Shown: positions 5,699 to 56,028 of the stretch, piece after piece | Layout of the letters: each line of letters begins with the position of its first letter | Numbering within the stretch: position 1 is the stretch's first letter | Origin: a virus | Taxonomy: Duplodnaviria > Caudoviricetes | IMG/VR virus record: IMGVR_UViG_3300045120_000343 | Span: 1 to 57,727 of that record | Direction: 5' to 3' (one strand) | DNA: 57,727 nt | Program-made: the position numbers and the translations under genes | Notes under the pieces: model-generated | Told to the model about the DNA's origin: nothing | The model's database searches: none | The model's input: only the letters and a program-made list of their open reading frames with translations

Positions 5699-5702
5699 GT
5701 AG

Positions 5703-5781: not shown

Positions 5782-5792
5782 GAGGGGGGACT

Positions 5793-15409: not shown

Positions 15410-15414
15410 AACGA

Positions 15415-15505
15415 CCCCCTTATGCGATTTTGCGGAATCTAACGCGTCAGCTTGCGACGGTCCCGCGCCCCAAAGATTGCGATGATTTAGATCCCCCTCC
15501 CCGTG
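15415..15505. other. Probable cos/packaging-initiation region
   Basis: Inference from position between the HNH gene and the terminase operon, with G-runs (GGGGAGGGGG, AAGGGGG) as in HK97-like cos phages. Confidence 0.35.
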
Positions 15506-39374: not shown

Positions 39375-41969
39375 TCAATTCACGTGAACGCGGGAGTCTT
39401 CAAGGACCGCCGTGATCGAGACTATCTTGGCGCTGCGCGGGACAGCTCCCAAGAAAATCGCCTGACGCGGAACCTGATCAGATTGTCCGACCACGATATG
39501 CAGGGGCTCGGAACGGGTCGCGGTCATGTCGAAAGGTGTCGTATCAGGATAAGTTGGGGCAACGCTCAGCGTAATCATGAGCGCGTCGTCGGCCAGGGCA
39601 TAGCTCGCAATTTGAACGGCCGCTGAGGCGCGGCTGCGGCGATCTCTGAAATAGGCAAACCAAATTCCGCCAGCACTGAAATCTAATCTGCCCCAAAGCG
39701 TAACCGTCTTGGTGCCGGCATCGTAATCGTAAACTCTGGTCGACTGGCCCCAGCGCGGCATGTCGTGATGAACCAAGATCAGATCACCGCGAGAAGCGAT
39801 AAGACCTTCGAGTTCGGTGTCCCAGCTCAAGAGGACGCGCCGATAGCGATCGGCCGCGAGAAGATATTGGCCCTCCCGATCGATTTGATCAGGTTGGACG
39901 ACGCCGTCAAATTGATTAACGGATGGCGTTTGCGGGTCGGTCACGCCCGCCTGTGGGAAGGTCTCGCTGTCGTTGATCCAAGTGACTTCATTAAGAAAGT
40001 CCAGTCGCAGCGAGTCCGTTTCGTCCTCTGGCGATGGCAGGATGAACTGCATCGCGAAACTCCCTTTGATAATGTTCTCCGAAGAGAACAGCATCGTTGG
40101 AATGGTTTGCGGCTGATCGCGATGAAATCTCACTATGCCATATTGGTGATATGGAACGGTGCGACCCGCGCGCAGCGCCAGGCCAAGCGCGGACCACAGG
40201 GTAATATTCTGCGCCGAGTAAAAATCGAAGGTGTCTCCCCGGCTGTCCCAAATAGCGGCCAGGGCCGCCAGGCCGGCCAAGTCGAAATTCACGTCGTCGA
40301 GTTTGCCGCCATAGGTCGTGTTCTTGAGCATGTCGGCGACTGCCCAAGCAATATTGCGCGTGGCCGTCGGCGCAGACCAGGAAACGCCATTCCAAATCGG
40401 CAACAATCTCGTTCCTGTTACAGCGATTTGCCGCGATGAAACGCTGTTGATCGAATTGGTCCGGTCCGCGAACATCGTGACAGCTAGCATGGTACAATCG
40501 CCGTAGCCGCGCGCCGTTTCGAGAAAGCCTCGCAATCCGTCCCAGTGGAGATCATGACCGACCGATCCGGTAAGTATTTTGTCATCCAAGCGTTTGGCTT
40601 TGATCTGCCATCGCGCCGCGAACGGAAGATTTATCCGAAATGAAAATGTCACCGGCCTAGATCGTTCGCCCGTGTAGTTGTAAGTGCCGCCCAGAAAGGT
40701 GCTGTTCGGCTCTGCGGCCGTGACCAAAGGCGAAGCTCCCGAGTCCGCAAGTTCTTGATCTAAGAATTGCCAATCGCTGAGCGGATTGCCGGAGTCATCG
40801 ATCTCCTGACACAGGAATCGCCATTCGATGGTGAGTGAGTCGAGCGCGCCGGTCCCGGTGTTGAGCTCATATAGTCCAGACGGCAAGCTCAGATCAACGC
40901 CGATCTGCTCGATAGTCCGTCCCGGCGGGCATGCGATGAAAGGCCCCTTCACATAAGTGATGCTAGAGAATACCACAAAGGTCCAATTCGTGCCGCTGGT
41001 TAACGGGTCGTTGCCGATATTATTTAGGAGAGCTGCGTAGTATGTCCTGATCCCGCCTTGGTCCCGCCAGACGACGTCGCCGATGAAATAAAAGACGGTG
41101 GCGCTCCATTCGTCAACGCTGAAGCCTCCCAACGCCGGATCGTTAGGGGCTGGGAGTTCAATCCCTAAGACTTGAGTTGAAGTGAAAACTTCCGGTTCAA
41201 AAATATTGACCGCTGTGCCGGGCAAATAAAGTGTGAAGTTCACGTTGTCGAAGGAAAGCGAGTCAGTTTGTCCAATCTCGATCTTTTCAGTCTCAATCTC
41301 GCCCTGACTCAACATGAGGACCTGGTGTAATACCTGGCCGCGATCTATCCATTCCGCCCAAGGCGCCGAGGCGAGATCAGGAACGAATCTTAGCCTGCCG
41401 TAAAGTGCTGGAATCGGATTGCCGAGCCGGGCGACATTATTTTGTGCCGAAAGGCTTCCGGCGTATGTAGGGGGAGCAGCGTCGATACCGCCGCCCGAGC
41501 CACTCGAGGCACTCGAGCCAACCCCAACCAAACCAAGATTGCCTGCTGGCTTCACCGGTATCAAAACGTTCAACAGATAATTGGCGCCGATCACGAGCGC
41601 GGCGGTGGTGACGGCAGTAATGACCCCGCCGATGATGGCTCCGCCGCCAAGCAGACCGGCGATCGGCGCTGCGAGGAACGGAGCCACGACCGCAGCCAAG
41701 ACTAGAATTCCAAGCGTCGCCGCGACTCGTGCCCCGTCGCTTTGGGGCATGACGATAAAGACGACGACGTCGCCGTCCCGCGCGCTGACGCGGTGCCATT
41801 TTGTTTGGCTGATCCAACGACCGTTGTGTGAGCAAACGATCGGCCGACGCTTTGGATCAAGACCGTTGTTGCGTGCGAGCCGGCGGAGCGATATTGACCG
41901 AGGCTCGACGACGGTCGCGCGCTTCGGAAGGCTGGAAGTTATGTTATTCAGGATGTGGACGAAGGCCAT
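39375..41969 (-). CDS. Tail tip/hub protein (gpI-like N-terminus plus gpJ-like host-specificity domain)
   Basis: Ubiquitin-like N-terminus (DGDVVVF), NVARLGNPIPALYG, TRNIAWA, DLAGLAAL...RGDTFD, GDLILVHHD.P.WG; CBM-like insert WSATVFYFIGDVV. Confidence 0.85.
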   Translation of the reverse strand: MAFVHILNNITSSLPKRATVVEPRSISLRRLARNNGLDPKRRPIVCSHNGRWISQTKWHRVSARDGDVVVFIVMPQSDGARVAATLGILVLAAVVAPFLAAPIAGLLGGGAIIGGVITAVTTAALVIGANYLLNVLIPVKPAGNLGLVGVGSSASSGSGGGIDAAPPTYAGSLSAQNNVARLGNPIPALYGRLRFVPDLASAPWAEWIDRGQVLHQVLMLSQGEIETEKIEIGQTDSLSFDNVNFTLYLPGTAVNIFEPEVFTSTQVLGIELPAPNDPALGGFSVDEWSATVFYFIGDVVWRDQGGIRTYYAALLNNIGNDPLTSGTNWTFVVFSSITYVKGPFIACPPGRTIEQIGVDLSLPSGLYELNTGTGALDSLTIEWRFLCQEIDDSGNPLSDWQFLDQELADSGASPLVTAAEPNSTFLGGTYNYTGERSRPVTFSFRINLPFAARWQIKAKRLDDKILTGSVGHDLHWDGLRGFLETARGYGDCTMLAVTMFADRTNSINSVSSRQIAVTGTRLLPIWNGVSWSAPTATRNIAWAVADMLKNTTYGGKLDDVNFDLAGLAALAAIWDSRGDTFDFYSAQNITLWSALGLALRAGRTVPYHQYGIVRFHRDQPQTIPTMLFSSENIIKGSFAMQFILPSPEDETDSLRLDFLNEVTWINDSETFPQAGVTDPQTPSVNQFDGVVQPDQIDREGQYLLAADRYRRVLLSWDTELEGLIASRGDLILVHHDMPRWGQSTRVYDYDAGTKTVTLWGRLDFSAGGIWFAYFRDRRSRASAAVQIASYALADDALMITLSVAPTYPDTTPFDMTATRSEPLHIVVGQSDQVPRQAIFLGAVPRSAKIVSITAVLEDSRVHVN

Positions 41970-42385
41970 GGCAACCCGCGTGGACGATAGAAGCCGAGGA
42001 TGTTCAAGCCAAGTGGTCGCAAGGCACCGATCTTTGTGAATATCACGCCGGTCTTCTCGAGCACGTGCAGTGTTCCTCCTCCATCGAGCGACAGATAAAC
42101 GCCGATGTGGTCGGGGAGCCTGCCGCGGCTCATATAGGTTGCGCAACCATCGAATGGCTTGTCGGTCTTTTCCGCCTCACCCGCGTCGACGGCGCGGATG
42201 AAACGGGTGCGCAACGCTTTCGATTCTGTGTGATCAAAGGAAATGTTAGGCAGACCGATTACGCCGAATTGCATTCGCAGGACATAGTCGTAAAGCCCCC
42301 AACAGTCGAAAGCGTCCGGACCTCGGGCGAGTCGCCGATATGGCTTACCGATAAGGCCGATCGCCAAATCATCATGCGTCGTCAT
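41948..42385 (-). CDS. NlpC/P60 tail tip protein (gpK-like)
   Basis: IGKPY...RGPDAFDCWGL...HIGVY...GTLH. Confidence 0.9.
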   Translation of the reverse strand: MTTHDDLAIGLIGKPYRRLARGPDAFDCWGLYDYVLRMQFGVIGLPNISFDHTESKALRTRFIRAVDAGEAEKTDKPFDGCATYMSRGRLPDHIGVYLSLDGGGTLHVLEKTGVIFTKIGALRPLGLNILGFYRPRGLPWPSSTS

Positions 42386-42960
42386 ATATATTGCAAAGTC
42401 GGAAATCTTGATGGCGAGTAGGATTGCCAAGGAAACCGACGCGAACCGACAGTCAGCGTTATCAGCCTTCCAGACACCGAAACGCCGGATGCGGAAACTT
42501 CAACCAGATTGAATTTCAACGGCGGATCGTTTTCCGGTCCAGCGCCTTCTGATCCGACGAGATATTCCCGATATGTGATGTAAATCGCCTTGCCTCCTTG
42601 TGCTGCTTGAATGAGAAGATCGATCATTTCTCGCCCGACATTGTCGACTGTGAGCGTCGCCCGTGGCGTCGGGTCGGTTGTGGTGTCAGGAATTGAGATC
42701 GAAAATGGAACGGCTGAGAACATCACAGAGCTGCTTGCTCGACGAGGGGCAGTGCTTTCTAAAACCGCGTCAAGCTCGCGCGAACCGTCATCGTTGATCC
42801 TTGTAGGGTTGGCACCATCAAACAAGAATACGTCCGCGGGAGCGTCAGCGTCGTCTACCAGCCCGTCGAAATAAATCGAGATCGTCGGGATGATCGGGAT
42901 GTCCGGATCAGCCGCAGCGTAGGCTTCCTCGAGTGCGTCGGACAGAGTGATATTAGGCAT
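42382..42960 (-). CDS. DUF1833/gpL-like minor tail protein
   Basis: LSDALEEAYA, FSAVPF.ISIP, LTVDNV, ITYREYL, FP...YS..RFP.L. Confidence 0.8.
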   Translation of the reverse strand: MPNITLSDALEEAYAAADPDIPIIPTISIYFDGLVDDADAPADVFLFDGANPTRINDDGSRELDAVLESTAPRRASSSVMFSAVPFSISIPDTTTDPTPRATLTVDNVGREMIDLLIQAAQGGKAIYITYREYLVGSEGAGPENDPPLKFNLVEVSASGVSVSGRLITLTVGSRRFPWQSYSPSRFPTLQYI

Positions 42961-42994
42961 GTGTCGTCGTCGTGGCCATACGTTAGGATTCACT

Positions 42995-45316
42995 TCATAT
43001 CGCTACTGTTGCACCATACCCGAGCAGACTAGGCGTGCGCTGTTGTATCGTAGCCCCTGAGTAAGTTGTTCCCGCAGTTCCTGCCAACATTGAATTAGTG
43101 ACACTTTCTCGATGGACTGTAATTGTACCATTACCAGTCTGATAGATATTTGTCCCGGTGACTATATACCAAACTACTCCACTCCCATTGTCCAACCCGA
43201 TCTCAAGGCCGTTAAATAACCAATTCGCATGAGTACCAGCAGCAATAGTAACTAGATGCGTCGCCCCAACATAGGACCAATTTACAGATAGATTCGCATA
43301 GTAAGAAAAACCGTCGCCTGCGCTATCTTTGACGTGGGAGTATGTCTGAGCGCCTGTCTGCTCGACGATGCACATCGAACGTGCGCAAATTGGCATAGCA
43401 GTACCCAGCACGGGTGTTTTGATCGAAGCTACATCGGCCAGAGTTATGCGTTGACATTCTCCTGGTGCTGGCTTGTAGCCAATGAATTTGGTTGTGCCGG
43501 TGCCACTAGAGCGAGGGAAAAAGGTGTGGGCAGGAGTAAACGAACTCGGAGACCAATAACTACGATCCCATTCCCCAAAACCAAATGCTTTACTCCCGAA
43601 AGCATTTTGCGAGGCAGTACTTGGATCATAGCCTGTAGCGCCGAACGTACTGCCAGGGCCGCCCGCCGGAACGGCGGTGCTCTGTCCGACGTAGCGAAGA
43701 TTCGCATTCATAAGGGCCGCAGATCGGTCCACGACTAATTGTATCGTTGTATTGTCGTCGCCGCCGTCATATCCTTCAATAACAATTCTTCCGTTCGAGG
43801 TTATGGATTGCGCCCCCTTCGTATCACGCATAACGAAATTTGTTTCAACCTGCCGAATCCAAGGAAATGCCTGGCAAGCTTGTATCACTGATGTGGTTCC
43901 GGCGCTCGGATTGGCCGGGTTGGCGTTTCGCATACAAAGCTCGTCGACAATCGCTTGGCCCCCGCTCATGTCATCGCTGTCCCCAGGCTGCGCAAATTCC
44001 GTGTCCCAAAGCGCCATGCAACAGGCATTGTTCTCGTAATGACAATGGATCAAATGGCCGGGTCCTTCGAAATAAATGCCCCTCTCGCACGCATACAATG
44101 TTGTAACCGCCTGCAATTGTGTCTGAAAATTTGTTGAGCTAAGCGCTACGTCCTGACCATAGTACGCCCACACCCAGCCTTCCCAGAGCCAATACGTTGC
44201 AACATTGGTGCTGGTGTTGAAGCTGACAAGACGGAGCGGGACAATGCCAAACCCAGGCAACACAACCGTTGCAACATCATAAACGAACCCAGTATCGGGG
44301 CATTGCGTCCAGTACGGCAGATAGTCGGGCACAACCGTGGTTGTGAACCGATAATTGGTGAAGCCCGTGCCCCCCGCAATAAAGTCGGTAAACGAGGTCA
44401 GTGCAGACGTACCAGAGATCGCGACTGCCGCACTGTTCGAGGTTCCAAACCCATGCTCGCCACCGATAACAACGTAATCCTGCCCCTTGCTACTGAACGG
44501 CCGTATTGCCCCGATGTTGCAGTGAAAGACCGAATTGACCAACGATTGACTATTCCCCCATTGAATTCCCAGATAGCAACCGTTGGTCGAGCAGTAGAAC
44601 CATTTGTTCCCCTCTGCCAGAGCTCCACTAAAGTTGTTTGTCCCAGTCTGAAATCCGCAGAAAAAGGCTGTTGCCGAGCAATCTACAAAGGTTGTGCCGA
44701 CAGCCCCGCCGCTGCCGGTCGCAATGGAAAAACCAACACAATTGGACGGCAGCAGCCGAGGGGCAAAGATACCAAGGGACACCGAGTTGTTTGTCAGGTT
44801 AACGCCGGAGACACGCTGTCCAGAGGCATCATTATTACTGCCAGGTCCTACCCACCATGCGGGGGCAGTTTGAAAAGTCACTGTGAAGCGTGTGCGATGA
44901 TCTGCCTCGACCGAGATATTTGGGCCGAAAATTGTCGGCGTTGCAGTCTGCCCGGCAAGTAATTGACCAACCGTCAAAGAACCGCGGAGATTACCCGGTG
45001 GATCTTGAAAGATTGGATTATTGATAGTCCATGCATTACTTGGTCGATATGGTATGCGAACCCGCGAGATGTCGTTGTTGAAGGCAAAGTCTATCGCCGC
45101 CTGGATAGACAGATCGGTGTAGCCGCCAACGCCGAGAAAATCGGTGACGTCGACTATGCCGGGAGTCCCCCCGCTGCCCGGAGGGCCTTGTGGTCCCTGT
45201 GGCCCCACCAGCGCCGAGACCGGCGCCCGCTTGGTAACGCCGCCCTGAACGAGTGGAAAAGGCTCTGTGCCGATCAGCGGGATGGTTGCTGGCGTCAGTT
45301 CGGAAATCTTGGCCAT
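42995..45316 (-). CDS. Tail fibre/spike with probable beta-helix domain
   Basis: N-terminal anchor MAKISEL...PLVQGGVTK, short GPQGPQGPPG, VDVTDF.G...IQAAID beta-helix cap; AT-richer codon usage. Confidence 0.75.
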   Translation of the reverse strand: MAKISELTPATIPLIGTEPFPLVQGGVTKRAPVSALVGPQGPQGPPGSGGTPGIVDVTDFLGVGGYTDLSIQAAIDFAFNNDISRVRIPYRPSNAWTINNPIFQDPPGNLRGSLTVGQLLAGQTATPTIFGPNISVEADHRTRFTVTFQTAPAWWVGPGSNNDASGQRVSGVNLTNNSVSLGIFAPRLLPSNCVGFSIATGSGGAVGTTFVDCSATAFFCGFQTGTNNFSGALAEGNKWFYCSTNGCYLGIQWGNSQSLVNSVFHCNIGAIRPFSSKGQDYVVIGGEHGFGTSNSAAVAISGTSALTSFTDFIAGGTGFTNYRFTTTVVPDYLPYWTQCPDTGFVYDVATVVLPGFGIVPLRLVSFNTSTNVATYWLWEGWVWAYYGQDVALSSTNFQTQLQAVTTLYACERGIYFEGPGHLIHCHYENNACCMALWDTEFAQPGDSDDMSGGQAIVDELCMRNANPANPSAGTTSVIQACQAFPWIRQVETNFVMRDTKGAQSITSNGRIVIEGYDGGDDNTTIQLVVDRSAALMNANLRYVGQSTAVPAGGPGSTFGATGYDPSTASQNAFGSKAFGFGEWDRSYWSPSSFTPAHTFFPRSSGTGTTKFIGYKPAPGECQRITLADVASIKTPVLGTAMPICARSMCIVEQTGAQTYSHVKDSAGDGFSYYANLSVNWSYVGATHLVTIAAGTHANWLFNGLEIGLDNGSGVVWYIVTGTNIYQTGNGTITVHRESVTNSMLAGTAGTTYSGATIQQRTPSLLGYGATVAI

Positions 45317-48300
45317 CAGCTATCCAATTCCAGGGGAGTGCCATCTTCCAACAGCAAAAACGCGCCGCCCTCATCGAGTAGAGCAGGCCCCAAAAAATCC
45401 CATGCGTCGAAGAATGGATCCAATGTCAAATCCTCGATCAGGCCGATCATGGCCAAGAGCTCGTCCGGCGTGGCCTCCGCAAAAAGCGCCTCTAGCTCGG
45501 CGAGCTGCGATGGGGTAACGCTGTTGACGTCGCGCGCCTCCAATTCGGCCACGACCTGCCAGCGATTAAAATTGATGGCATTGACAACTGGCGGCGAGGA
45601 GAAGCGGGCCTTTACCGTTCGATATTGCGAACTGTCGATCGGGACATCGATCGAAAAGAAAGCTGCCTCGTTTCTCGCGCGATATTCTAGCCACTCATTG
45701 AAATAGGCTAGTTGCGTATCGTCCCACTGCCAAGAAACAGAGAAGAGGCGAAATGGCGTCAGCGTACCGGCGCGGAAGTTAGCGATACCCTCGTTGCTTG
45801 CCTCAGTGCGATTGCCGGCCGCGGCACGCTTGTTTGAATAATTGTCAACCTGAATCGCATTTTCCAGAACTTCAGCAGGGAAAACGCCATCGTCCAATCC
45901 CGTAAAGTCGCTCCGCGATAGCAAGTTGGCGTCGTTGATTTCGAGCCGTGTCGTCAGACGCCACCGATCGGCAACGGTGGATATCGGAGCCAGTGCTTGT
46001 TCGCCGACAAAACGGGCCAGAACTGTCCTCTTGACGCTTTCGATCGGGATGTCGATGTGGAACCAGATTTCACCGTTCTTAGCGCTATAGTCGTACCATG
46101 CGTTGAAGAACTCGGCTTGATATTGGGTAAAATCGATGACGCCAGAGACGATGCGCAGCGGACTTCGGTTTGTCAGCCGAACTCGGTCAAAGCCCGATTC
46201 CATCGCCGAGCGCACGGCTGCGGCGTCCCGTTTGTTGCTGTAGCCGCTAACCAGAAAATCGGCCTGCAGAAATGGCGGGAATGTCAGGCCAGAGAATACT
46301 GGAGGCGTCGCGGCTCCAAACGGCGGGGCTTTGACGAAACTCAACGCCGGATAAAGGACGAACGAAACTTTCCGCCGCGTCGGCAATGACAACGGCTGAA
46401 ACCATTTGGTGATGAAAGTCGTCTCGGCGAATGGCGCCGCCTTGACGAAACTCAGAAACGGCTGTTCACGCGTTGGCAGCCCGCGTCTGGGCAATACCGG
46501 CTCGCGAAGTGCTGCGAACCATTTGTCGAGAGTTATAAGCTCACCTGCCGGCGTGAACTTCGACCAGATCAGACCATCGGGCTGGACCGCCGTCGGTTTG
46601 CGCCGGGTCGGAATAGAGAGCGGACTGAACCATCGTGCGTCGGTTGCCGTGTCCGTGCCGACGAACGGGAATCGCACATAGAGCTGCGCGCCCTGCTTGC
46701 GGCGGGAGGGCTCGCTTAGGGCCTGTTGCCAGCGGTCAACCGAGACCGCCTCAGCGAATGGCGCGGCCTTGACGAAGGCAAAGAACGGCTGCTCGCCCGT
46801 GGGCAGCAGGCGCAACCGGGTCGGTTCGCGCAGGGCTGCATACCACTTCTCGACCGTGATATCGGGATTGGCCGGGAAATAATAGGCCGCCGGGAACCAG
46901 GGAGGGTATTCGGCGAAGCGGATACGGCGGGTCGGCTCCCCCAATGGTAGCAGCCACTTGTCGATGCTAACCGCTTCGGCGAACGGCGCGGCCTCGACGA
47001 ACGCTAGATAGGGCTGCGCTGCCCCAGAGAGCGCCGCTGGGAAGCGTTTGGGCTCCGACAGGGGTCGGAGCCACCTGTCTATCGAAATGGCTTCAGGGAA
47101 CGGATCAGCCTTGACGAAGGCCAGCACCTGCTGGTCGTAGGCCGGTAGACCGGACCGTGCCCGTACCGGCTCAGCAAGCCAGTTGTAGTATTTATCGACG
47201 GTGACGGTTTCGCCCGCCGTTGGCGTAAGATAGGACCAGCTAAGCGACGGGAAATCCGTCAGCTTCTTGGCGCGCGTCGGTTCGGAAAGCGGAGCAAACC
47301 AGCGCGTGTCGGTCGCGATATCCGAGCCGACAAAGGACAGCTCGTCTTGCGCGCTGGTTGAATATCCACGCCGGCGACTCGGCTCAGAAAGCGGATAGAA
47401 GAACCAGCGCGCAGCATCTGTCGCCACGTCAGAGCCGACGAACGATAATTCGTCTTGTGCTTGGGTTGGATAGCCGCGGCGCCGCACGGGCTCGCTGAGA
47501 GGCTGTTGCCAGCGATCGGCGGAGACGGTCTCCGGGAACGGAGCGGCCTTGACAAAATAGGCATATGGCTGCTCGAAAGTCGTGCCGACTTTCGGGAAGC
47601 GTTTTGGTTCAGAAAGCGGCTGCTGCCATTTGTCGATCGACACCGATTCGGCAAAAGGTGCGGCCTTGACAAATGAGAGATAAGGATTTGAGCCCGGCGC
47701 CAGCCCGCGCCGCCGCACCGGCTCAGCAAGCGCAGAAAACCAACGATTGTCCCTCGCGGCATCCGAGAGCCCGAGCGCCAACGCAGGATGCTCGGACGTC
47801 GGTAAAACACGTGTGCGAACTGGCAAGCCAAGCGGAGCAAACCAGCCCATAGAGGCCGCGATATCGCTGAAAGGCAGAGCGAACTGGCGCAGCGGTGTCA
47901 ACGTATTTACCGGGGGGCCGAAGTCAAATGCCGCCGGAGTGCCAGTCGAATTCGTTGCGTTCTTACTATTGCCGCTTAAATCCGGTTCGGTCGCTACCAA
48001 GCCGTCGACCGGCCACCAATCTACTAAAGATTTAGGTCTAATCCTATTAGGACGAATTCCAGAACAATAAGCTTGTACCTCAAGAGCGGTTAGCGCGACA
48101 CTCCAAATAGCAGCGTCGGCAATCCGACCTGTGGTATCGGAAGTCGGAGTAGCCGATCCTCCATATGTTCCTACCCGAGCATTTGTAAATTGAGTTCCGC
48201 CAAAAACAGCCGAAACCGCGTCTGTGCTCGATAAAAGTGATCCAGAAAATATATATTGTGTTCTGCTTGTTGAAGAAGCGCAAACGAACAGCATAGGGTA

Positions 48301-48588
48301 CCAAGTATTGGCACTCAATGGTCCGAGAGCTGCGGGGTTACGGAAGTTGCCTACACTATCACTAACGAGACATTGAAAATTGTTTGCAGCCGCATCAACT
48401 CCAAATGAAACAGTGTTGGTAAATCCTCCGTAATCCGCATGATCCATTGAAAGTGGATGTGAATTTGATCCAGTAACGCTAGGCAACGATGTAAAATAAA
48501 CCCAACAAGCTATTGTAAATGGGTAATTGGTAAGCGGACCCACAGCCGCTTGATAGGCACCGTTCCCTACTGTGAATAGTCGCGCCAT
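45316..48588 (-). CDS. Distal tail protein with tandem Dit domains, 14 internal repeats and an N-terminal LamG domain
   Basis: LamG: FTIACWV...NTWY...GRIADAAIWSVALTALEV...LVDWWP; two copies of the YSNKR...FN.W..Y...F.ID.PI...ARF...RW....LE pattern; lies between the tape measure and gpL/K/J genes. Confidence 0.75.
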   Translation of the reverse strand: MARLFTVGNGAYQAAVGPLTNYPFTIACWVYFTSLPSVTGSNSHPLSMDHADYGGFTNTVSFGVDAAANNFQCLVSDSVGNFRNPAALGPLSANTWYPMLFVCASSTSRTQYIFSGSLLSSTDAVSAVFGGTQFTNARVGTYGGSATPTSDTTGRIADAAIWSVALTALEVQAYCSGIRPNRIRPKSLVDWWPVDGLVATEPDLSGNSKNATNSTGTPAAFDFGPPVNTLTPLRQFALPFSDIAASMGWFAPLGLPVRTRVLPTSEHPALALGLSDAARDNRWFSALAEPVRRRGLAPGSNPYLSFVKAAPFAESVSIDKWQQPLSEPKRFPKVGTTFEQPYAYFVKAAPFPETVSADRWQQPLSEPVRRRGYPTQAQDELSFVGSDVATDAARWFFYPLSEPSRRRGYSTSAQDELSFVGSDIATDTRWFAPLSEPTRAKKLTDFPSLSWSYLTPTAGETVTVDKYYNWLAEPVRARSGLPAYDQQVLAFVKADPFPEAISIDRWLRPLSEPKRFPAALSGAAQPYLAFVEAAPFAEAVSIDKWLLPLGEPTRRIRFAEYPPWFPAAYYFPANPDITVEKWYAALREPTRLRLLPTGEQPFFAFVKAAPFAEAVSVDRWQQALSEPSRRKQGAQLYVRFPFVGTDTATDARWFSPLSIPTRRKPTAVQPDGLIWSKFTPAGELITLDKWFAALREPVLPRRGLPTREQPFLSFVKAAPFAETTFITKWFQPLSLPTRRKVSFVLYPALSFVKAPPFGAATPPVFSGLTFPPFLQADFLVSGYSNKRDAAAVRSAMESGFDRVRLTNRSPLRIVSGVIDFTQYQAEFFNAWYDYSAKNGEIWFHIDIPIESVKRTVLARFVGEQALAPISTVADRWRLTTRLEINDANLLSRSDFTGLDDGVFPAEVLENAIQVDNYSNKRAAAGNRTEASNEGIANFRAGTLTPFRLFSVSWQWDDTQLAYFNEWLEYRARNEAAFFSIDVPIDSSQYRTVKARFSSPPVVNAINFNRWQVVAELEARDVNSVTPSQLAELEALFAEATPDELLAMIGLIEDLTLDPFFDAWDFLGPALLDEGGAFLLLEDGTPLELDS
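46290..47844 (-). repeat. 14 tandem protein repeats of about 37 aa (WxxPLxEPxR...FVKAAPF.E.VS.D)
   Basis: Counted in the translation; first Trp at 47844, last at 46404. Confidence 0.9.
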
Positions 48589-48884
48589 TAAATAATTCCG
48601 GCACGTTTCATCAGCACGTAGCAGCACAACAATGTCTTCTGTTGTACCGTCGCGCTGCTGAACGGTGCTGGAATTATAGCAGCTAACCCGTTGATGACCG
48701 TAGTCGCACCCCCCACTGCCGTAACCGCCGCGCTCAGAGCAGTATCAAAAGCCGCATCCAGCGCAGACGCCGCCGCGGATATATCCGCCACACTGAAATT
48801 TGCCGTCACCTGCGGACGAACAAAGTTTTCTACCGCCCAAAGAGACGCCACTTGCTGTACTTGTGAAGCGTTAAGCTGGGCCAT
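48588..48884 (-). CDS. Hypothetical Ala-rich protein
   Basis: Stop overlaps the Dit start (TAATG). Confidence 0.6.
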   Translation of the reverse strand: MAQLNASQVQQVASLWAVENFVRPQVTANFSVADISAAASALDAAFDTALSAAVTAVGGATTVINGLAAIIPAPFSSATVQQKTLLCCYVLMKRAGII

Positions 48885-48888
48885 CGGA

Positions 48889-49374
48889 TCACTCCCATAC
48901 CAGCATATGGATGCCGCTAAGAATGGCGGCGAGCGTCCAACCGGTGGCGTTGAAGGTGATCAATGTCGGGATAAGCTGTCCCGCGCTCGGCGCCGCGGTC
49001 AAGATCAGTTTATTTTCTACCAACACATCCGCTGCAGTCCAGGTGATCGACTGCTGCGTCTCCGTGGTAAGAGTGGCAGCCCCGGGATTGCTGCCCGGCG
49101 AGACAACCCCATCCTTGACCGTATATTTGACGACGCCGGAAGTGGCATTCGCCTGGAACAGAGAGCGCAGCTTGAGAACCCCTGTAGGTATCGGGTTTGG
49201 CGCGATGAATTGCAAAACGGCTGGCGCATCGCTACCCAACGAAGCAACGACCTGAATGCCTTCCAGCGCCCCAGCAAGGTTGGTATTGGTAGCAGGAATG
49301 TAAACCATAGAACTTAGGAGGCCGGATGCCCCGCCTAAATACAGCGAACAAGGAAATACATAACCGCCAGCCAT
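48889..49374 (-). CDS. Hypothetical beta-rich structural-like protein
   Basis: Thr/Gly/Ala-rich, AAGG SD. Confidence 0.6.
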   Translation of the reverse strand: MAGGYVFPCSLYLGGASGLLSSMVYIPATNTNLAGALEGIQVVASLGSDAPAVLQFIAPNPIPTGVLKLRSLFQANATSGVVKYTVKDGVVSPGSNPGAATLTTETQQSITWTAADVLVENKLILTAAPSAGQLIPTLITFNATGWTLAAILSGIHMLVWE

Positions 49375-49414
49375 TGCCTTAATTCTCCGTGGCAGACATC
49401 ATAGTCGAACGCTC

Positions 49415-49672
49415 TCATACATATGAGCGCCGCGCGTGATAGGACGCTTCCTCGGCCTCTATTTTTTTCATGAAATGGAGGCACTCGAAACAGCCTGGTT
49501 TGAGGCAGTGGAATCGCATGCAGTTACGGCAGAAGTCGGCAACCTCTTCGATCTTCTTATTCGCCGGAGTGTGAATGATGCAGCCATTGTGACAGCATTG
49601 ATGTGTATCGCATTCTCCGGTGATCTTGCCGGTCAGCCTATCAGTAAGCGTGGCATAGCCCTGCGACTTCAT
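49415..49672 (-). CDS. Cys/His-rich putative zinc-binding protein
   Basis: CDTHQCCHNGCIIH...FCRNCMRFHCLKPGCFECLH. Confidence 0.55.
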   Translation of the reverse strand: MKSQGYATLTDRLTGKITGECDTHQCCHNGCIIHTPANKKIEEVADFCRNCMRFHCLKPGCFECLHFMKKIEAEEASYHARRSYV

Positions 49673-49705
49673 ATAGATTGTCTCGCATCAAACATGGAGG
49701 AAACG

Positions 49706-50053
49706 ATGTCAGAAGAGCGCCTTGCCGAAATCCCGCCTGCCGATCCGACCGAAGAGGCCACCACGACAGAAGAGGCGTTGGCATTAATTCGCCAGCAGGC
49801 GATGGCCCTGATCGCTAAGGTCGATCCGATATTGCTCGATCAGATTCACGCCGTGATCAAGGGAACGCCCGCGGTCGTAGGAACCGCGACCATCGCCGCA
49901 GTGCTTGCCGACATTCTCTGCTTTGTCTCCAAGACCGAGGATGGCCTGGGCAAGAACGTGCTGCTCGCCTCAGAAGCGATCCTGCGGATGGCAACGGCAG
50001 GACTGAAGAACCGGCCGGCGCGAACTCCAGCCGGCCAGTTGATCGCTCATTGA
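49706..50053 (+). CDS. Hypothetical protein, antisense moron
   Basis: GGAGG SD, ATG at 49706; fills the gap between minus-strand genes. Confidence 0.55.
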   Translation: MSEERLAEIPPADPTEEATTTEEALALIRQQAMALIAKVDPILLDQIHAVIKGTPAVVGTATIAAVLADILCFVSKTEDGLGKNVLLASEAILRMATAGLKNRPARTPAGQLIAH

Positions 50054-50523
50054 GCCGACTGTGGTTCCGGAGGCATGACGGGAGCAGCCTGACCGTAAGC
50101 CGGGTGAACGGCACCGCCTGCATTGTTAATCGCCGTCAATCCATCCATCCACGCCGGCTTGGCGTTATCCACCAGGGGACCGACCTTGATGTTGTTCGCG
50201 GCGGCATAGTCGCGCAGAAATTTGGTGACGAAACCGTATTCGGCTCCGCCCGTCCGCGCATTGTTGATCATATCCATCAACAACTTCTCGGGATCGCTGT
50301 TGTCCTGACATTTCTTCCAGTTGTCATATGCCCACAGCGCCTCGCGGTTTAGATCGCGCACCAATTGAACGACTTCATCAGGTTGTCCTTTGGCCTCTAG
50401 ATAAACGGCGAGATCGTTTGCATACAAACTCGGGAACGGCGCAACCGTTGCAATCGCCTCATCAGGGATTTCGAGGCCCACATGGGCGAGACGCCACTTT
50501 TTGATCTGATTCGGATCGATCAT
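50047..50523 (-). CDS. Hypothetical protein
   Basis: ATGA overlap with the hydroxylase stop. Confidence 0.6.
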   Translation of the reverse strand: MIDPNQIKKWRLAHVGLEIPDEAIATVAPFPSLYANDLAVYLEAKGQPDEVVQLVRDLNREALWAYDNWKKCQDNSDPEKLLMDMINNARTGGAEYGFVTKFLRDYAAANNIKVGPLVDNAKPAWMDGLTAINNAGGAVHPAYGQAAPVMPPEPQSAQ

Positions 50524-50996
50524 GTCTGCTCCACGTCGAACATAAGATGAATGCGCGGCGTTTCCCCGTCGTTGGTCACGGAATGCTCGACCAGCACGTT
50601 GACCATATAGGCTTGGCCAACGCGCATAACATGCCCGCTGCCAGCGACTACGAATGAGGATTCGTCATTGCTCGTGAGCGGACAATGGACGCGACAGAGC
50701 CAAGCATCGGATTGCTGATCCATGTGCGGTTCGATGCGATGCCCCGGCATTACCGCAGAGAGCATCCTAGAGTGTGCGCGGGCGCTCGGAAATAATTCCA
50801 TCAGAGCGGCAACTATACCATCAGACATGGCACCGAAGCGATGCCAGGCCAGATCGGTGACCATCGCCGGCTTGAGTTCGCTGCGGCTCTGCTGCGGCCA
50901 CGCCTCGAACCTGATCGTCTCAATCCAGGCGACCAGGTCGAGAACGTGCACGCAGGCGAGAAATTCGACGGAGCCGCGAAAGCGACGGTCACTCAA
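50520..50996 (-). CDS. Asp/Asn beta-hydroxylase-family 2OG-Fe(II) oxygenase
   Basis: MLSAVMPGHRIEPHMD (HxD), RVHCPL, EHSVTNDGETPRIHLMFDV. Confidence 0.85.
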   Translation of the reverse strand: MSDRRFRGSVEFLACVHVLDLVAWIETIRFEAWPQQSRSELKPAMVTDLAWHRFGAMSDGIVAALMELFPSARAHSRMLSAVMPGHRIEPHMDQQSDAWLCRVHCPLTSNDESSFVVAGSGHVMRVGQAYMVNVLVEHSVTNDGETPRIHLMFDVEQT

Positions 50997-51459
50997 AAAG
51001 GTGAACGATGCAGACCGTCGTGCCGGTGTATGCCGGACTCTTTGCGCGCCCGCCAAGACCGGTGACGGTGACCGCGGGAACGATCAATTCACCGCCCGGC
51101 GCGGCGACCCAGCGATAGGTCGCACGCTGGTTAGTGGCAATTTCCAGGAGCTGCGTCGCAGCGGTGACGGTCGGCTCGATCGTGGTAACGACGCCAGCGG
51201 TAATCAGCGCCGCCGCATCGCCGGCATCCACGGGTGCCGGGACCGCCGTGGTGCGCGTTCCGGTCGAGGTCTGCCGATCGACCTTGTAGGTCACCGTGTT
51301 ATCCGCAGGGGTGCCATCGGTTCCGAACGTGAAATCATAGAGCCACGCACGCCGCAAGGTCGTGGCGCCGGTCACAGCGGTGAGATCCCACTGCGTCTTA
51401 TATGTCGTGGTCAGCGCACTCGGGGTGCCCTGAGTATTGGATAGCGAGTATTTTGCCAT
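50989..51459 (-). CDS. Thr-rich beta-sandwich-like structural protein
   Basis: 156 aa, very Thr/Ala-rich, GGAG SD, structured leader. Confidence 0.6.
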   Translation of the reverse strand: MAKYSLSNTQGTPSALTTTYKTQWDLTAVTGATTLRRAWLYDFTFGTDGTPADNTVTYKVDRQTSTGTRTTAVPAPVDAGDAAALITAGVVTTIEPTVTAATQLLEIATNQRATYRWVAAPGGELIVPAVTVTGLGGRAKSPAYTGTTVCIVHLFE

Positions 51460-51558
51460 GATGGGCTCCGTTTCGAGGCGCGTCCTTACGACGGGCCGAA
51501 TGCGCGTTGCCCAAGCGCGCTATTTGATTGGGCGTCATCCGGCTTACGCCGGAATTTC

Positions 51559-53427
51559 TCAGAAAGCGTTCATGATGTAGTCGATGTTGATTTGCATCAT
51601 GCCAGCAGTTAGAGCCTGGACGCTGACGGTCAGCGTAATCTGCTGCTCGGTGCCATTGTAGAAGAAATCGCCCGGTACTATGCCATTTATAATCAAATCG
51701 GGCGAGGTGATTGGTCCAGCGGTGATAACTGTTGCTGCTAGGAACGCAGCCGGAGTGCCCGTCACCCCTAACGCGATTTTGGCGGTATTGCTACTACTAG
51801 CAAAGGTTACCGATGGGGACGTGAAGACCCGGGTTACGATAGCACCCTTCGGAAGAGTGACGCCAAGATTCTTTGTTCCTACAGACCCGCCGTCAGTCGG
51901 AACATTGTAAGATGTGCAGATTCGACCGCCATCAAATTTAACTCTCAGACCTCGAATGCTCCCCGCGCCGAGGGTCAATTTAGTGAAATCGACGCCTTGT
52001 ATGTTGCTGAGAGATAAGTCGACGCAGTTTTTGGTAAGCGGTGCTTTGGACGACATATTACGCGCGGCGAAATTTGCAATCGTAATCCTGGTGACACCAT
52101 CTATATCCCACGGAATTGGAGATGGTGCTGAACCGCCGTCAAAATCCACTCCATCGATCACCCAATCTGCAGCGGTCGATACGGCCCCGTCGAAAGCATT
52201 AACGCAATTTTTGATTGTGCCGTTCGTAAATTTGACAGCGGACCCGAGCGGAATCTGGAAGGCCGAGAACGCCGTATCGATGAAATAGTTATTGATCGAT
52301 ATGCCGCTAATCGTTCCCTGAAAGAACATTGCCTCTTCGGCGTTCGTCGTGCCCTTGAATTTGTAGCCAGAGAGCGAGCAATGCGTACAGTCTCGCCAGA
52401 TGATACCGACATTGGCGCCTTGTGAGTTTTCGCTGTAAATATCGGACACCTGCAAATCAGTTTGCGTAAAAAATCCGAAATCACAGTTGAAGTTGCCATT
52501 ATGCGCGGTGCACTTGGAGACTTTATTGCCTTTTCCGGTGTCGATGGAATAGCCGAAATTGCTTGTGCACCCGCCGCAATCCACGTCGCATTCGGTCAGC
52601 GTGTTGTAGCCATCAGATGACGACGGCGATACCAGGGATATGCCTGCCGTGCCGCCGCCCGCCAGAGTTTGCGCCGTGACCGAGAGGGCAACCCTAATGC
52701 CGCGAATGACCGAGCGGCTTGCTTTGACCGCAAGGCCATAGGCATTACCCTGCCCCGAGAATGGCACGCTGGTGTTGGAAGCGTTGTCTGAATAAAAGTT
52801 TCCCACCGTGCAACGGTTCAGTATCGCGACGAATGCCGTTTGCGTGTGATGAAAGACCCGCAAGTCGCGAAATACGCAGTCGTTGAAAGTCGTGGGAGCG
52901 GCTCCATTGAGAGTCCCGATCGCCATCCCATCCACGTTCGAGAAATAGAGGTCGTCAAATACCGAGTCCGCGACGATCGAGGTGCTGTCTGCGCCGACGA
53001 AAATGCTATGTATAAGGTTATGCGGTGCACCGGCTTGATTGGCAAAATTGCCGTCCAGCAAGAGGCGGCTAAATGTTACACGCGATGTGGTCGCCCCCGT
53101 GGGCCACACAAACATGCTGCCACTAGCGTTAGCTTTCAATCTGAACGTAGTGTTCCCGTCCCCCAGCACCCGTAAATTGGAGAGCAGCGGCACCGAGTCG
53201 ACCGCATAGATACCGCCGCCCGTAACCCATAATGGGATTTTTTCCGAGGCGGCATAGGCGAACGCAGCAGTGACGGCGGCGGTATCGTTCGCCGCGCCAT
53301 CTCCCACGACGCCGAACTGTTGCAGGTTGAGAGCGTTGAGAGGCCGCTTGCGCCACCGGCTGCCGTCAAATTTCCAGGTGCGATAGAGATCACCTGACGA
53401 TGGCGCTATCGGGAAATCCAAAGCCAT
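51559..53427 (-). CDS. Tail spike, pectate-lyase-like beta-helix (depolymerase)
   Basis: NLQQFGVVGDGAANDTAAV..A cap motif; N-terminal anchor MALDFP..PS.G...WKFDG.RW. Confidence 0.8.
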   Translation of the reverse strand: MALDFPIAPSSGDLYRTWKFDGSRWRKRPLNALNLQQFGVVGDGAANDTAAVTAAFAYAASEKIPLWVTGGGIYAVDSVPLLSNLRVLGDGNTTFRLKANASGSMFVWPTGATTSRVTFSRLLLDGNFANQAGAPHNLIHSIFVGADSTSIVADSVFDDLYFSNVDGMAIGTLNGAAPTTFNDCVFRDLRVFHHTQTAFVAILNRCTVGNFYSDNASNTSVPFSGQGNAYGLAVKASRSVIRGIRVALSVTAQTLAGGGTAGISLVSPSSSDGYNTLTECDVDCGGCTSNFGYSIDTGKGNKVSKCTAHNGNFNCDFGFFTQTDLQVSDIYSENSQGANVGIIWRDCTHCSLSGYKFKGTTNAEEAMFFQGTISGISINNYFIDTAFSAFQIPLGSAVKFTNGTIKNCVNAFDGAVSTAADWVIDGVDFDGGSAPSPIPWDIDGVTRITIANFAARNMSSKAPLTKNCVDLSLSNIQGVDFTKLTLGAGSIRGLRVKFDGGRICTSYNVPTDGGSVGTKNLGVTLPKGAIVTRVFTSPSVTFASSSNTAKIALGVTGTPAAFLAATVITAGPITSPDLIINGIVPGDFFYNGTEQQITLTVSVQALTAGMMQINIDYIMNAF

Positions 53428-53431
53428 CGAA

Positions 53432-53920
53432 TTACAGCTCTATCCACTGGCTGGAATCGGCATCTGTTTCCCACATGAACAATCCGGGGTAAGGCGACAA
53501 TGACGGATCGTACCAAAGCTTGCCGTTGAATGGGGAGGAAGGAGCGGAGCCCGAAACCGTCACCGATTGATCCGCAGTTATTAGTTGCATCCAAAATAAC
53601 GGACTGGAGGCGGGATCATGATTGAGATTAGCGTTCTGGATCGACACATAAGCAACGGTACCGGACGACACCGCATCGAGCTGTGCGTACGTCGTCACGG
53701 CGCTCCAAACGCCACGCGGATTGAACGCTTGACCCGCCTGGATCTCCAATTCTATCCGCGCGAGCGTCTTGAGGGTGCGCGGCCCGACGTCGACGATGCT
53801 GCTGGCGCCCGTCGGCGGCCCCGTGATGACGCCGAGCAAATATCCGGTTTGCGTAACGAGAACCGCGACCTTCGCAACGAAAGTATTAACCGCAGTCTGG
53901 ACGTCCGTTAAAAGCGACAT
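53432..53920 (-). CDS. Tail adaptor with a CBM5/12-like motif
   Basis: RGVWSAVTTYAQLDAV...YVS..NAN.N.DP....FW; C-terminal SAPSSP.NG.LWYD. Confidence 0.6.
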   Translation of the reverse strand: MSLLTDVQTAVNTFVAKVAVLVTQTGYLLGVITGPPTGASSIVDVGPRTLKTLARIELEIQAGQAFNPRGVWSAVTTYAQLDAVSSGTVAYVSIQNANLNHDPASSPLFWMQLITADQSVTVSGSAPSSPFNGKLWYDPSLSPYPGLFMWETDADSSQWIEL

Positions 53921-53924: not shown

Positions 53925-56021
53925 CTATCCCGAAAACCGCGGTCGCAATCCGTAGCGATTCGTCAGCGCCGAGTTCAAAGCGCCGCGACCGTCGGAAACT
54001 TTACTTGCGATCTGTGCTTCGGCTTGCTCGACGATGAAAATGAGATCGACGCCTCCGGATTGGTTCTTCTTCTGGTCTACTGAGACCTGGGCAGAGCTGT
54101 TGTTCTGGACGTTAACATTGACCTCGACGGCGGAGCGGCCGCCTATTGCCGCCATCTGCCCTGGCGTCAACACCGACTCGTCGCGTGTCAGGATGGCCGG
54201 AACCTCGTTCGCCATAAGGCCAGCATGAAAGCGCGGGGCATCATCAAAATAAGCCGGATGGATATAGCGCGTCGTTCCTTCCGATCCAACGATGCCACCT
54301 GAATGGAATCCCGTACCAGCAAAATATGAACCTGATGCCGGGGATGCTGGCCCCAATCCTGCACCACCGGGCAGAAAACCGCCAATCGCCGACTGCAACG
54401 CTCGCGCAATCGGGATCGTGATCGTCATCTTGATGATCATTTCCTCCAGCGAGCGAATAACTGCCGTGCTCAGATCCTTGAAGGCGTCGCTGGCATTCTT
54501 CGCGCCCGTCGTGATGTCTGCAAGGCTAGACGTCAGACTGCTAGATGCCGAGTTCACGAATTCATCGGCCGCGCTGCGCGTCTGCCTCAGTTGATCGTTC
54601 ACGCGGAGTTGCGCGGCGTACGTCGAGTTCAATGCCGCGGGTACGTCGTTCCCGTATAACCCTTTTAGCTGTTGCGCGATCTGGACATCTTCCGGCGAGA
54701 GCAGCGCGGTCTTTCGGCCGAAGTCTATGTCGCTGGCGATCTTAGCGCGCTCGAGCGCCGCCGCCGCAGCCGCCGCGCGCTCCGCAACTTTCGCAATTTT
54801 GTCGGCGTAATCTTCGAGCTTGCCGCCGTTCTTAACGATGTCCTGTTGCGCCGCTTCCTGGAGGCGAAACTCGGTACGGAGCCTCGCCACCGCCTCGGCG
54901 CCTTTGCCTTCAGTTTGTGCATCGGCCTCTGTCGCTGCGATGTGGCGCTGGATCGATGCTGTCAGGCGGTCAAACTCATCAGCGGCCGTTTTGGTATCAA
55001 GCTCCTTGGGCTTCTCACCGACTGCAGTAAAACGCCCTGTAAACGCGCCGCCTAACCCCGCTGCTAGTGTTTGCCGTGCCCTAGTAAGCGCATCGATCTG
55101 CGGCGGTTCAGGTCTGTAAGATAATCCCGGCTGGCTGGCTGCCGATCCAGGCCCAGCAGACAGCGAGTTTGTGATCAGCGTGGGCAAAAGGAAAGCCGGA
55201 CTGTAAGCCAATATCTTCCCAATCGTCTCCCATGGTATCTTGTTCAAAGGCTCGACGGCTTTCGCGATTATTTCGGCGATGCTCACCCACACCGCCTGAA
55301 ATTTCAATGCAAGGTTCGTTAGATCTAATTGAACCTTGAAAAATTCGTTGATCGTGTTTTTTGCTGCGTCGAGCCGTTTCCCCAACTCGATCGCATTTTG
55401 AACTTGAGTCGATGAAATCGTTTCGGTCTGGAATTTGGTCAATTCCTTCAGTTTGTCTTCAAAGCCGCTCGGCTCAAATAATGCTCGTTGCCCGGCGATG
55501 CTGTATTTCTCTAGGAGGTCGGCCCCTAATTTTAGCACATAATTCAGCGCCTCAAACGCTGCAACCGCAGCTCCTATCGGCAAGGCAATGCGCGAGAAGA
55601 ATGCCAACGCGGGAGCTGAGAACGCGACGACGCGACCGATAACGGTCGCGATCACGCCGAGCTGCGTGCCGAGCAATCCAAGACCTTGCATAATCTCGGC
55701 GTTCACGAAGGATCGAAAGGCGGGAAACAAGGCGTAGGCGCCCAACGCGATGAGCTTCAGATGATTGATGTGGTTAAGAAGATCGCTGGCATGATCGGCG
55801 ATGCTTTTGCCGAAGGCTTGCGATCCGGCTGTAGCTTGCGCCACCGAGTTTTGGTAGGTTTGCTGTTGCCGCGTGACGTTCTGATATGCTTGCTGCTGCG
55901 CATTAAGCGACGTCGTGATCGCGCCGCTTACTTTGTTGTTGTCGTTAACGACCTGATCCACCCCCTCCGTGGAGTAGACGTAGCGCAGCCGTTTTACGGC
56001 GTCCTGCATCGTCGCGGCCAT
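53925..56021 (-). CDS. Tape measure protein (about 698 aa)
   Basis: Ala-rich helical body with hydrophobic segments; C-terminal FHSGGIVG...PRFHAGL..NEVPAIL...E.VLT. Confidence 0.88.
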   Translation of the reverse strand: MAATMQDAVKRLRYVYSTEGVDQVVNDNNKVSGAITTSLNAQQQAYQNVTRQQQTYQNSVAQATAGSQAFGKSIADHASDLLNHINHLKLIALGAYALFPAFRSFVNAEIMQGLGLLGTQLGVIATVIGRVVAFSAPALAFFSRIALPIGAAVAAFEALNYVLKLGADLLEKYSIAGQRALFEPSGFEDKLKELTKFQTETISSTQVQNAIELGKRLDAAKNTINEFFKVQLDLTNLALKFQAVWVSIAEIIAKAVEPLNKIPWETIGKILAYSPAFLLPTLITNSLSAGPGSAASQPGLSYRPEPPQIDALTRARQTLAAGLGGAFTGRFTAVGEKPKELDTKTAADEFDRLTASIQRHIAATEADAQTEGKGAEAVARLRTEFRLQEAAQQDIVKNGGKLEDYADKIAKVAERAAAAAAALERAKIASDIDFGRKTALLSPEDVQIAQQLKGLYGNDVPAALNSTYAAQLRVNDQLRQTRSAADEFVNSASSSLTSSLADITTGAKNASDAFKDLSTAVIRSLEEMIIKMTITIPIARALQSAIGGFLPGGAGLGPASPASGSYFAGTGFHSGGIVGSEGTTRYIHPAYFDDAPRFHAGLMANEVPAILTRDESVLTPGQMAAIGGRSAVEVNVNVQNNSSAQVSVDQKKNQSGGVDLIFIVEQAEAQIASKVSDGRGALNSALTNRYGLRPRFSG

Positions 56022-56028
56022 AATCGTC

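Follow-up and report, generated by a model that had tools for sequence, protein, structure and literature searches.

A probable distal tail protein with a repeat-bearing N-terminal module, candidate rope of a beaded lateral fiber in an uncultured siphophage

Architecture of the 1090-residue tail protein

The stretch of DNA analyzed here (the window) is IMG/VR record IMGVR_UViG_3300045120_000343 at its full length of 57,727 bp, a complete genome of an uncultured virus bearing direct terminal repeats; the virus is a siphophage. Our subject is a minus-strand gene of its tail module (45316-48588), which encodes a protein of 1090 amino acids (aa) with an N-terminal LamG domain, 14 Trp- and Pro-rich repeats, and two tandem domains resembling the distal tail protein (Dit) of other phages, together with the small genes lying directly upstream of it. 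The open reading frame (ORF) spans 45316-48627, and the ATG at 48588 yields the 1090-aa product. The start of the gene overlaps the stop of a 98-aa gene, and its stop overlaps the start of a 773-aa gene. The initial annotation, made from the DNA letters alone, had described this three-part layout, which was reproduced by Pfam, by a motif scan, and by alignment of the protein with itself. The whole protein found no relatives in the IMG/VR search and none among GenBank phages at an E value of 1e-5, and the window DNA likewise had no match among GenBank phages.

The LamG/concanavalin-like domain occupies residues 9-172 (48073-48564, minus strand), at the distal N-terminal end, and was recognized as Laminin_G_3 (PF13385; E = 1.5e-11; 45.1 bits, above the cutoff of 27.6), the only Pfam match on the protein at E values up to 0.01. 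Stand-alone relatives of this domain, of about 250 aa, exist. The repeats follow at residues 222-739 (46372-47925), and the motif scan placed their 14 W..PLSEP.R anchors at residues 249, 283, 321, 360, 395, 430, 467, 506, 545, 582, 620, 653, 690, and 729, a spacing of 33-39 aa that defines a repeat of about 37 aa with the conserved core E.V..D[KR]W..PLSEP.R. The 14 units fall into three interleaved subtypes, FVKAAPF.E.VS.D[KR]W, FVGSD.ATD.RW, and TP..GE..T.DKW, which may select different partners. The same three subtypes recur in distant members of the family, for example, in P0010.

The two C-terminal domains (domain 1, residues ~765-905, 45874-46296; domain 2, residues ~906-1050, 45439-45873) align with each other at 34% identity (E = 7e-19), far beyond chance. 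The profile of PHROG 384, a family named “virion structural protein,” matches the pair in two stretches (E = 4.3e-24), and the relatives P0004 and P0025 match it likewise. Both domains took the same secondary structure, beta strands, a 15-residue helix, and beta strands again, in an AlphaFold2 (AF2) model of residues 745-1090 built from a six-row alignment, where the predicted local distance difference test (pLDDT) score averaged 60.6 and reached 70-83 in the domain cores. The conserved motif LTLDPFFDAWD (residues ~1039-1049) immediately precedes an acidic, Leu-rich C-terminal tail (45319-45438), for which model confidence is low.

The four best Foldseek matches of this model in the PDB, 8rk3_D (JBD30 baseplate), 8vjh_B (Chi tail tip), and 9occ_D and 9occ_C (Sf11 tail), are all Dit chains (E = 4e-4 to 8e-3). 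The record 8vjh_B was deposited as “Distal tail protein” of phage Chi, and the distal tail protein (DTP) gp17 of Sf11 was modeled over residues 3-165. The gp49 sequence was found in 8rk3, and no protein of the JBD30 tail other than gp49 (567 aa) and gp53 (735 aa) is large enough to supply a chain of 554 residues; we therefore take 8rk3_D to be gp49. Phage lambda gpM (8iyk_E) stood at Foldseek rank 47 (probability, 0.95; template modeling [TM] score by target, 0.52). It has the same basic fold but is a single domain of 109 aa that forms a hexamer, whereas the window protein combines two such domains with large additions; no Pfam match was obtained on the Dit-like part, the resemblance lying at the level of the fold alone.

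By sequence, the nearest GenBank relatives of the domain pair are in Achromobacter phages (8 records at E values up to 1), and a word-based homologue search with the Dit part found P0007 alone. In Achromobacter phage JWX, the homologue gp22 (tblastn E = 2e-3), itself an example of PHROG 384, has a homologous two-domain core and is followed by a small hypothetical gene (gp23), a fiber gene, and the same tail tip genes, DUF1833, NlpC/P60, and J. Unlike the window gene, it comes immediately after the tape measure gene, and its product of 357 aa lacks an N-terminal extension. The Dit-like gene thus falls between the tape measure and hub genes in the window as it does in JWX and in the IMG/VR contig L003 (below); relative to that order, the window has insertions of eight ORFs upstream, which separate the 1090-aa gene from the tape measure gene, and of one fiber gene downstream. 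The initial annotation had called the pair Dit-like and had placed the ORF in the distal-tail position; with PHROG 384, Foldseek, and the synteny with JWX and L003 in its support, we consider it very probable that the C-terminal pair is the Dit of this phage.

The repeat family and its companion genes

The viral family to which the repeats belong is large and has no name. An exhaustive search with the whole protein returned 4800 representatives at E values up to 0.001; among the 150 listed, 124 carry at least three anchors, for 931 units in total. In these, a fixed core of about 18 aa (consensus P-E-T-V-T-x-D-K-W-x-x-P-L-S-E-P-V-R, with the Trp almost invariant) recurs with a period of 30-44 aa, in 3-23 copies per protein, and the linkers between cores are poorly conserved. 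Nine repeat- or Dit-bearing proteins were scanned without meeting any real Pfam or PHROG family other than PHROG 384 on the Dit-bearing ones, and the repeats matched no repeat family of Pfam, PHROG, or NCBIfam. The Dit pair is present in 6 of the 150 listed representatives, and repeats and Dit stand together only in the window's own protein; across these representatives and the 80 loci described below, the fusion of a repeat array to a Dit occurs only in this genome. Stand-alone repeat proteins in L013, L020, and L021 have a Phe/Gly-rich start (e.g., MFGxxxFG) and end in PW.LS. The next gene in these three contigs encodes 520 aa matching PHROG 8917 and, weakly, Phage-tail_3, with a similar N-terminal motif at least in L020, and no recognizable Dit lies between the tape measure gene and that gene.

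The minus-strand ORFs that the initial annotation described upstream of the 1090-aa gene are all present. The one at 50989-51459 encodes a 156-aa protein, our candidate bead on the strength of AF2, fold searches, and co-occurrence. AF2 models it confidently as an all-beta jelly roll (pLDDT, 85.8). Its PDB fold matches are weak and comprise viral jelly-roll capsids, TNF-like lectins, and phage tail-needle knobs; its BFVD matches are uncharacterized phage proteins (TM up to 0.78), and its Atlas neighbors are unnamed viral clusters. The family has at least 2391 members, all of about 155-157 aa and all unnamed, and its sole match among GenBank phages is in MW202566. A longer match, P0272, looks like a read-through into junk and lends no support to a fusion. 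The structured leader that the initial annotation had attributed to this gene did not stand up: the 99-nt spacer before it has a folding z of -0.88 relative to shuffled sequence.

Downstream of the 156-aa gene, and likewise on the minus strand, lies an ORF for a 178-aa Asp/Asn beta-hydroxylase-like cupin (50520-51056; start codon uncertain), whose match to PF05118 (E = 6.8e-14; 52.4 bits versus a cutoff of 22.6) covers the C-terminal half of the profile only. It is followed by genes for a 158-aa protein of no known family (50047-50523), an 85-aa Cys-rich protein that probably binds zinc (49415-49672), a 161-aa beta-sandwich protein (48889-49374) whose Atlas model begins at residue 23 and has CBM/MAM-like neighbors, and a 98-aa Ala-rich protein (48588-48884) that is translationally coupled to the 1090-aa gene and had no relatives in the loci examined. 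Kinship between the 156-aa and 161-aa proteins was considered and rejected (profile comparison probability, 0.4). An 88-aa Arg-rich ORF (49857-50123), which overlaps the 158-aa gene at its end, gave no convincing match and is unlikely to be a gene; if it is discounted, about 340 nt (49673-50046) are left without a clear gene.

The initial annotation had singled out the 156-aa protein as the preferred partner of the repeats and had pointed to co-occurrence and to variation in repeat number as informative. Repeat number does vary across phages, as described above, and the 156-aa family does travel with the repeats. A degenerate DNA motif for the repeat core retrieved 22 stretches from IMG/VR, every one of which (22/22) encodes the repeat family. 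Nine of the 22 have a 156-aa homologue encoded upstream in the same orientation, and the 85-aa Cys-rich gene often separates it from the repeat gene; searching the remaining 13 as whole records found the 156-aa family in 11, bringing the count to 20 of 22 repeat-bearing viral records, and the only two without it are fragments of 4.9 and 4.7 kb.

The reverse test started from the 156-aa family and covered the best 80 of its 244 IMG/VR loci. A repeat gene lies downstream on the same strand in 51 of the 80, at a median distance of 1813 nt, and in 42 of the 52 loci that have at least 6 kb of downstream sequence. Forward and reverse counts are not independent, because the loci of the reverse test partly overlap the 22 records. 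A hidden Markov model of the Cys-rich protein matched 77 of the 80 loci, including all 51 that bear repeats, so that the 85-aa protein is almost always paired with the 156-aa family; its gene lies between the 156-aa gene and the repeat gene in 37 of those 51. The hydroxylase was present at 5 of the 80 loci and the 158-aa gene at 3, and the 161-aa gene, the 98-aa gene, and the Dit pair were each found at none (0/80). From the co-occurrence counts, therefore, the conserved set consists of the 156-aa gene, the 85-aa gene, and the repeat protein. The “dedicated small-gene cluster” of the initial annotation accordingly contracts to the 156-aa and 85-aa genes, joined in a few phages by the hydroxylase and the 158-aa gene, and loses the 161-aa and 98-aa genes.

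Two further loci, G004 (L039 9730-14190) and G013 (L040 5692-15449), share the order of the window: 156-aa gene, hydroxylase, 158-aa gene, Cys-rich gene, repeat protein. Their hydroxylase copies are 52-54% identical, and the 158-aa gene is conserved beside them. When 185,579 genomes were searched with the repeat-core motif, 33 stretches were found, approximately the level estimated for chance, and 1 of the 33 was genuine. This one, L065, is a 1820-bp contig of Shinella pollutisoli carrying the 156-aa, Cys-rich, and repeat genes in the same order, which hints at hosts among the Rhizobiaceae.

The wider setting of the locus is that of a siphophage structural region. Terminase, portal, protease, and capsid genes lie on the minus strand. 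Beyond the tail tube gene come a tail assembly chaperone, a 247-aa gene without assigned function, and then, all on the minus strand, the 725-aa tape measure (53925-56102), a 162-aa gene (53432-53920), and a 622-aa pectate-lyase-like tailspike gene (51559-53427) immediately upstream of the 156-aa gene. On the other side of the 1090-aa gene, the minus-strand gene for the 773-aa fiber-like protein (42995-45316) stands between it and the tail tip genes, namely, DUF1833 (42382-42993), NlpC/P60 (41948-42430), and a gpJ-like gene (39375-42146), also on the minus strand; the fiber gene of JWX occupies the same place. The 773-aa protein has no family match in Pfam or PHROG, and PDB sequence searches with it and with the 162-aa protein gave no match; a short collagen-like stretch (GPQGPQGPPG) lies near its N terminus. 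The tail tube gene (Phage_tube_2; 3-1202 and 57540-57725) appears to cross the ends of the record, and the record start is therefore arbitrary relative to the tail module. A methyltransferase-like gene follows closely on the capsid gene, within the head module, in the window (4523-5845) and likewise in G013 (L040:3058-4212). Elsewhere in the window, a single 444-aa ORF (14177-15511) matches ParB-like nuclease and DNA methyltransferase families and looks like a fusion.

Known two-domain Dits and rope-and-bead fibers

Two groups of solved structures bear on this locus (PMC11445458 and PMC13730344). JBD30 gp49 is a trimer in which two beta-sandwich domains per subunit mimic the tube protein and step the symmetry from six to three, and its N terminus wraps lateral fibers made of gp47 and gp48 (PMC11445458). 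The tandem-Dit trimer proposed in the initial annotation is thus a known arrangement, because gp49 has been solved as a two-domain trimer. The window protein resembles JBD30 gp49 and the Chi Dit in having two tandem tube-like domains of beta sandwich and helix per chain. In JBD30, as at our locus, an N-terminal extension goes together with candidate partners encoded nearby: the extension of gp49 engages lateral fibers, and the gp47 and gp48 genes are located between the tape measure and Dit genes, where the candidate subunit genes of the window also lie. The differences are considerable. There is no detectable sequence similarity to gp49 or the Chi Dit, no OB-fold insertions are predicted in the window protein, its N-terminal extension is far longer (760 aa, including the LamG head and all 14 repeats, versus 174 aa in gp49), and its candidate subunits are unrelated to gp47 and gp48.

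The second group consists of the chain-like fibers, in which a rope protein holds a series of small protein beads, solved in the podophages GP4, VP1 (gp11), and A1002 (PMC13730344). The nozzle-rope protein of A1002, gp39, begins distally with an Ig-like domain, continues as a rope, and ends in a C-terminal domain that forms part of the nozzle; the rope is about 300 Å long and holds, by beta-sheet augmentation, 11 dimers of the small proteins gp40 and gp41, and the fibers run along the tail tube (PMC13730344). In GP4 the rope is a separate protein holding five gp80 dimers (PMC13730344). The statement of the initial annotation that no described family has the layout of the window protein is therefore not supported, since A1002 gp39 has the same order of parts: a distal beta-sandwich domain, a middle segment (serial docking sites in gp39, the repeat array in the window protein), and a C-terminal domain in the tail ring. 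The podophage systems share with the window small genes (of about 140-170 aa) for subunits, candidate ones in the window, beside the rope gene, and a variable number of sites or repeats. They differ in belonging to podophages, with the nozzle as the anchor in A1002, whereas the window is a siphophage with a Dit anchor; in having sixfold rather than the threefold symmetry expected in the window; and in the room allowed per bead, a repeat of about 37 aa in the window versus a calculated ~24 aa per dimer in A1002 (~268 fiber-dock residues for 11 dimers). Unlike the GP4 type, moreover, the window has no Gp80-family gene, its candidate bead is a jelly roll, and bead docking would here be a matter of analogy. 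Literature searches turned up chain-like fibers only in the A1002 paper and in publications that it cites, and none of the papers listed puts them on a siphophage.

In the contig L003, the tail tip genes (DUF1833, NlpC/P60, and J) are 67-84% identical to those of the window and are directly preceded by the Dit homologue P0004 (957 aa; L003:2908-6577), whose ring part is 74% identical to that of the window protein. At its N terminus, 22 Gly-rich GxGxLSA repeats replace the W repeats, with 19 of 21 spacings at 20-21 aa and almost all at exactly 20. About 400 nt upstream of this Dit gene lies a gene of the GP4 gp80 family (8jou_a, E = 6.1e-15; PF23140, E = 6.7e-36 for a family member), and L003 thus likely carries a chain-like fiber of the Gp80 type on a siphophage Dit. 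A relationship between the Gly-rich array and GP4 gp79 was also considered and was not borne out (BLASTP E = 1.9). Two further Dit relatives, P0025 and P0037, have other N-terminal modules again. The ring is thus conserved across these N-terminally different proteins, and the rope and bead genes appear to have been exchanged together. Several of the repeat-bearing phages carry a Gp80-family gene (Pfam, E = 6.7e-36) just before the 156-aa gene.

A proposed beaded lateral fiber and its alternatives

The observations can be drawn together in a model in which the 1090-aa protein would serve as the siphophage's Dit. Judging from fold and synteny, its two tube-like domains would most likely form a trimeric, pseudohexameric ring under the last tail-tube disc, as JBD30 gp49 and the Chi Dit do. 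The N-terminal 760 residues, comprising the distal LamG domain and after it the 14 repeats in linear array, would be an exchangeable module. We propose that the repeats act as a rope, each core (E.V..D[KR]W..PLSEP.R) docking one 156-aa jelly-roll unit, possibly together with the 85-aa Cys-rich protein. The result would be three beaded lateral fibers, each tipped by a LamG carbohydrate-binding head, with the hydroxylase and the 158-aa protein in accessory roles, modifying the fiber or assisting in its assembly. Docking, stoichiometry, and any role of the hydroxylase are inferred. In our judgment, a Dit-anchored rope-and-bead fiber with new rope and bead families is the best explanation of the locus, with a probability of roughly 0.5.

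Several findings weigh against this model. Ten of the 52 long-flank loci of the 156-aa family have no repeat gene and have other large genes downstream instead, and in MW202566 the relative of the 156-aa protein is encoded right behind the capsid gene, without a repeat protein. In G004 and G013 the cassette stands among head genes, near terminase or capsid, rather than following the tape measure gene, so that the 156-aa protein might serve more generally as a virion decoration or adaptor. No fusion of the 156-aa domain with repeats was found. Nor is the bead of the known type: the window contains no Gp80-family gene (a six-frame search with PF23140 gave 0 matches at E values up to 1, and Pfam gave none), and the 156-aa family was rejected as a Gp80 relative (hhalign probability, 0.1, with GP4 gp80 outside the best 50 PDB fold matches). 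By charge and hydropathy, no disorder is predicted for the repeat region, which is rather hydrophobic (mean hydropathy, 0.473; boundary, 0.421). On the side of the ring, the model of the Dit pair is of moderate confidence only (mean pLDDT, 60.6; TM, 0.23-0.52), and the Dit protein had no PDB sequence match, either as a single sequence or as a profile, gp49 and the Chi Dit included.

The same hydropathy would suit repeats that fold by themselves, and in the rival that we rank next after the rope-and-bead fiber they form an elongated solenoid or beta structure that holds the LamG domain away from the ring. The 156-aa and 85-aa proteins would then belong to the same cassette as a tip adhesin, adaptor, or chaperone, with no docking once per repeat. 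That many members of the family consist of little but repeats, with short ends, would fit such a stalk, as would the occurrence of the 156-aa family with other large proteins in the 10 loci just mentioned and beside a capsid gene. Its difficulty lies in the repeats themselves, whose period varies over 30-44 aa and whose linkers are poorly conserved; in our view, the variable period and copy number therefore fit a string of docking sites better than a tightly packed solenoid. The stalk is also at odds with the presence of the 156-aa family in 20 of 22 repeat-bearing records and with the sister L003, where the Dit pairs a repeat array of its own with a Gp80-family bead gene. Moreover, to judge from the JBD30 structure, Dit chains should leave the ring singly, so that no trimeric shaft is expected. 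We regard a self-supporting stalk as rather unlikely, and rank the rope-and-bead fiber ahead of it.

The near-invariant Trp and the other aromatic residues in each core could alternatively mean that the Trp/Pro-rich repeats bind a repeating host surface polymer along with the LamG domain, the small genes being unrelated neighbors or chaperones. LamG is linked to repeats in two orders, that of the window and that of a protein in L017 (LamG at residues 367-522), and tailspike and fiber genes surround the cassette, both of which suit a multivalent adhesin of this kind. It would, however, leave the tight linkage to the 156-aa and 85-aa genes unexplained, the repeats match none of the repeat families searched above, and we think it improbable. 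Lower still we place the idea that the repeats run as a strap along the tail tube or virion surface, each contacting one structural ring or capsomer, to stabilize or decorate it. The chain-like fibers of A1002 do lie along the tail tube (PMC13730344), and the head-gene setting of the cassette in G004 and G013 would agree with a strap on the virion. Against it, a copy number of 3-23 has no visible tie to any virion dimension, and the occurrence of the repeat family in tail and head modules alike argues against one fixed surface partner, which leaves a strap very improbable.

What is already known, then, are two-domain Dit trimers and chain-like fibers. What is new is the combination: a 37-aa W/P repeat anchored to the Dit of a siphophage, a jelly-roll protein as the candidate bead, its Cys-rich partner, and an optional hydroxylase. 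More tentatively, and with less than even confidence, we suggest that the W..PLSEP.R array could be the rope of a second class of chain-like fiber, unrelated in sequence to the known one, with beads formed by the jelly-roll protein and clamped by the small zinc protein and with parts modified in some phages by a dedicated hydroxylase. Such a class would be widespread in uncultured phages, with thousands of members; its anchors would vary, from Dit here to neck or head elsewhere, and repeat number would set the length of the fiber and repeat subtype the bead that is loaded.

Chain-like fibers built on a rope protein have so far been seen only in three podophages, and this locus suggests that the same principle may operate on long-tailed phages, where the anchor would be the distal tail protein and the parts would be unrelated to those of the podophages. 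Two large viral families, neither of which has a Pfam or PHROG name, would thereby gain a testable role: the repeat family, which makes up part of the 4800 representatives matching the whole protein, and the 156-aa family, with its at least 2391 members. The sister phage L003, with the same ring and another repeat array, suggests that rope and beads together form a cassette of receptor-binding hardware that can be exchanged, and such exchange would bear on the evolution of host range and on the engineering of phage fibers of set length.

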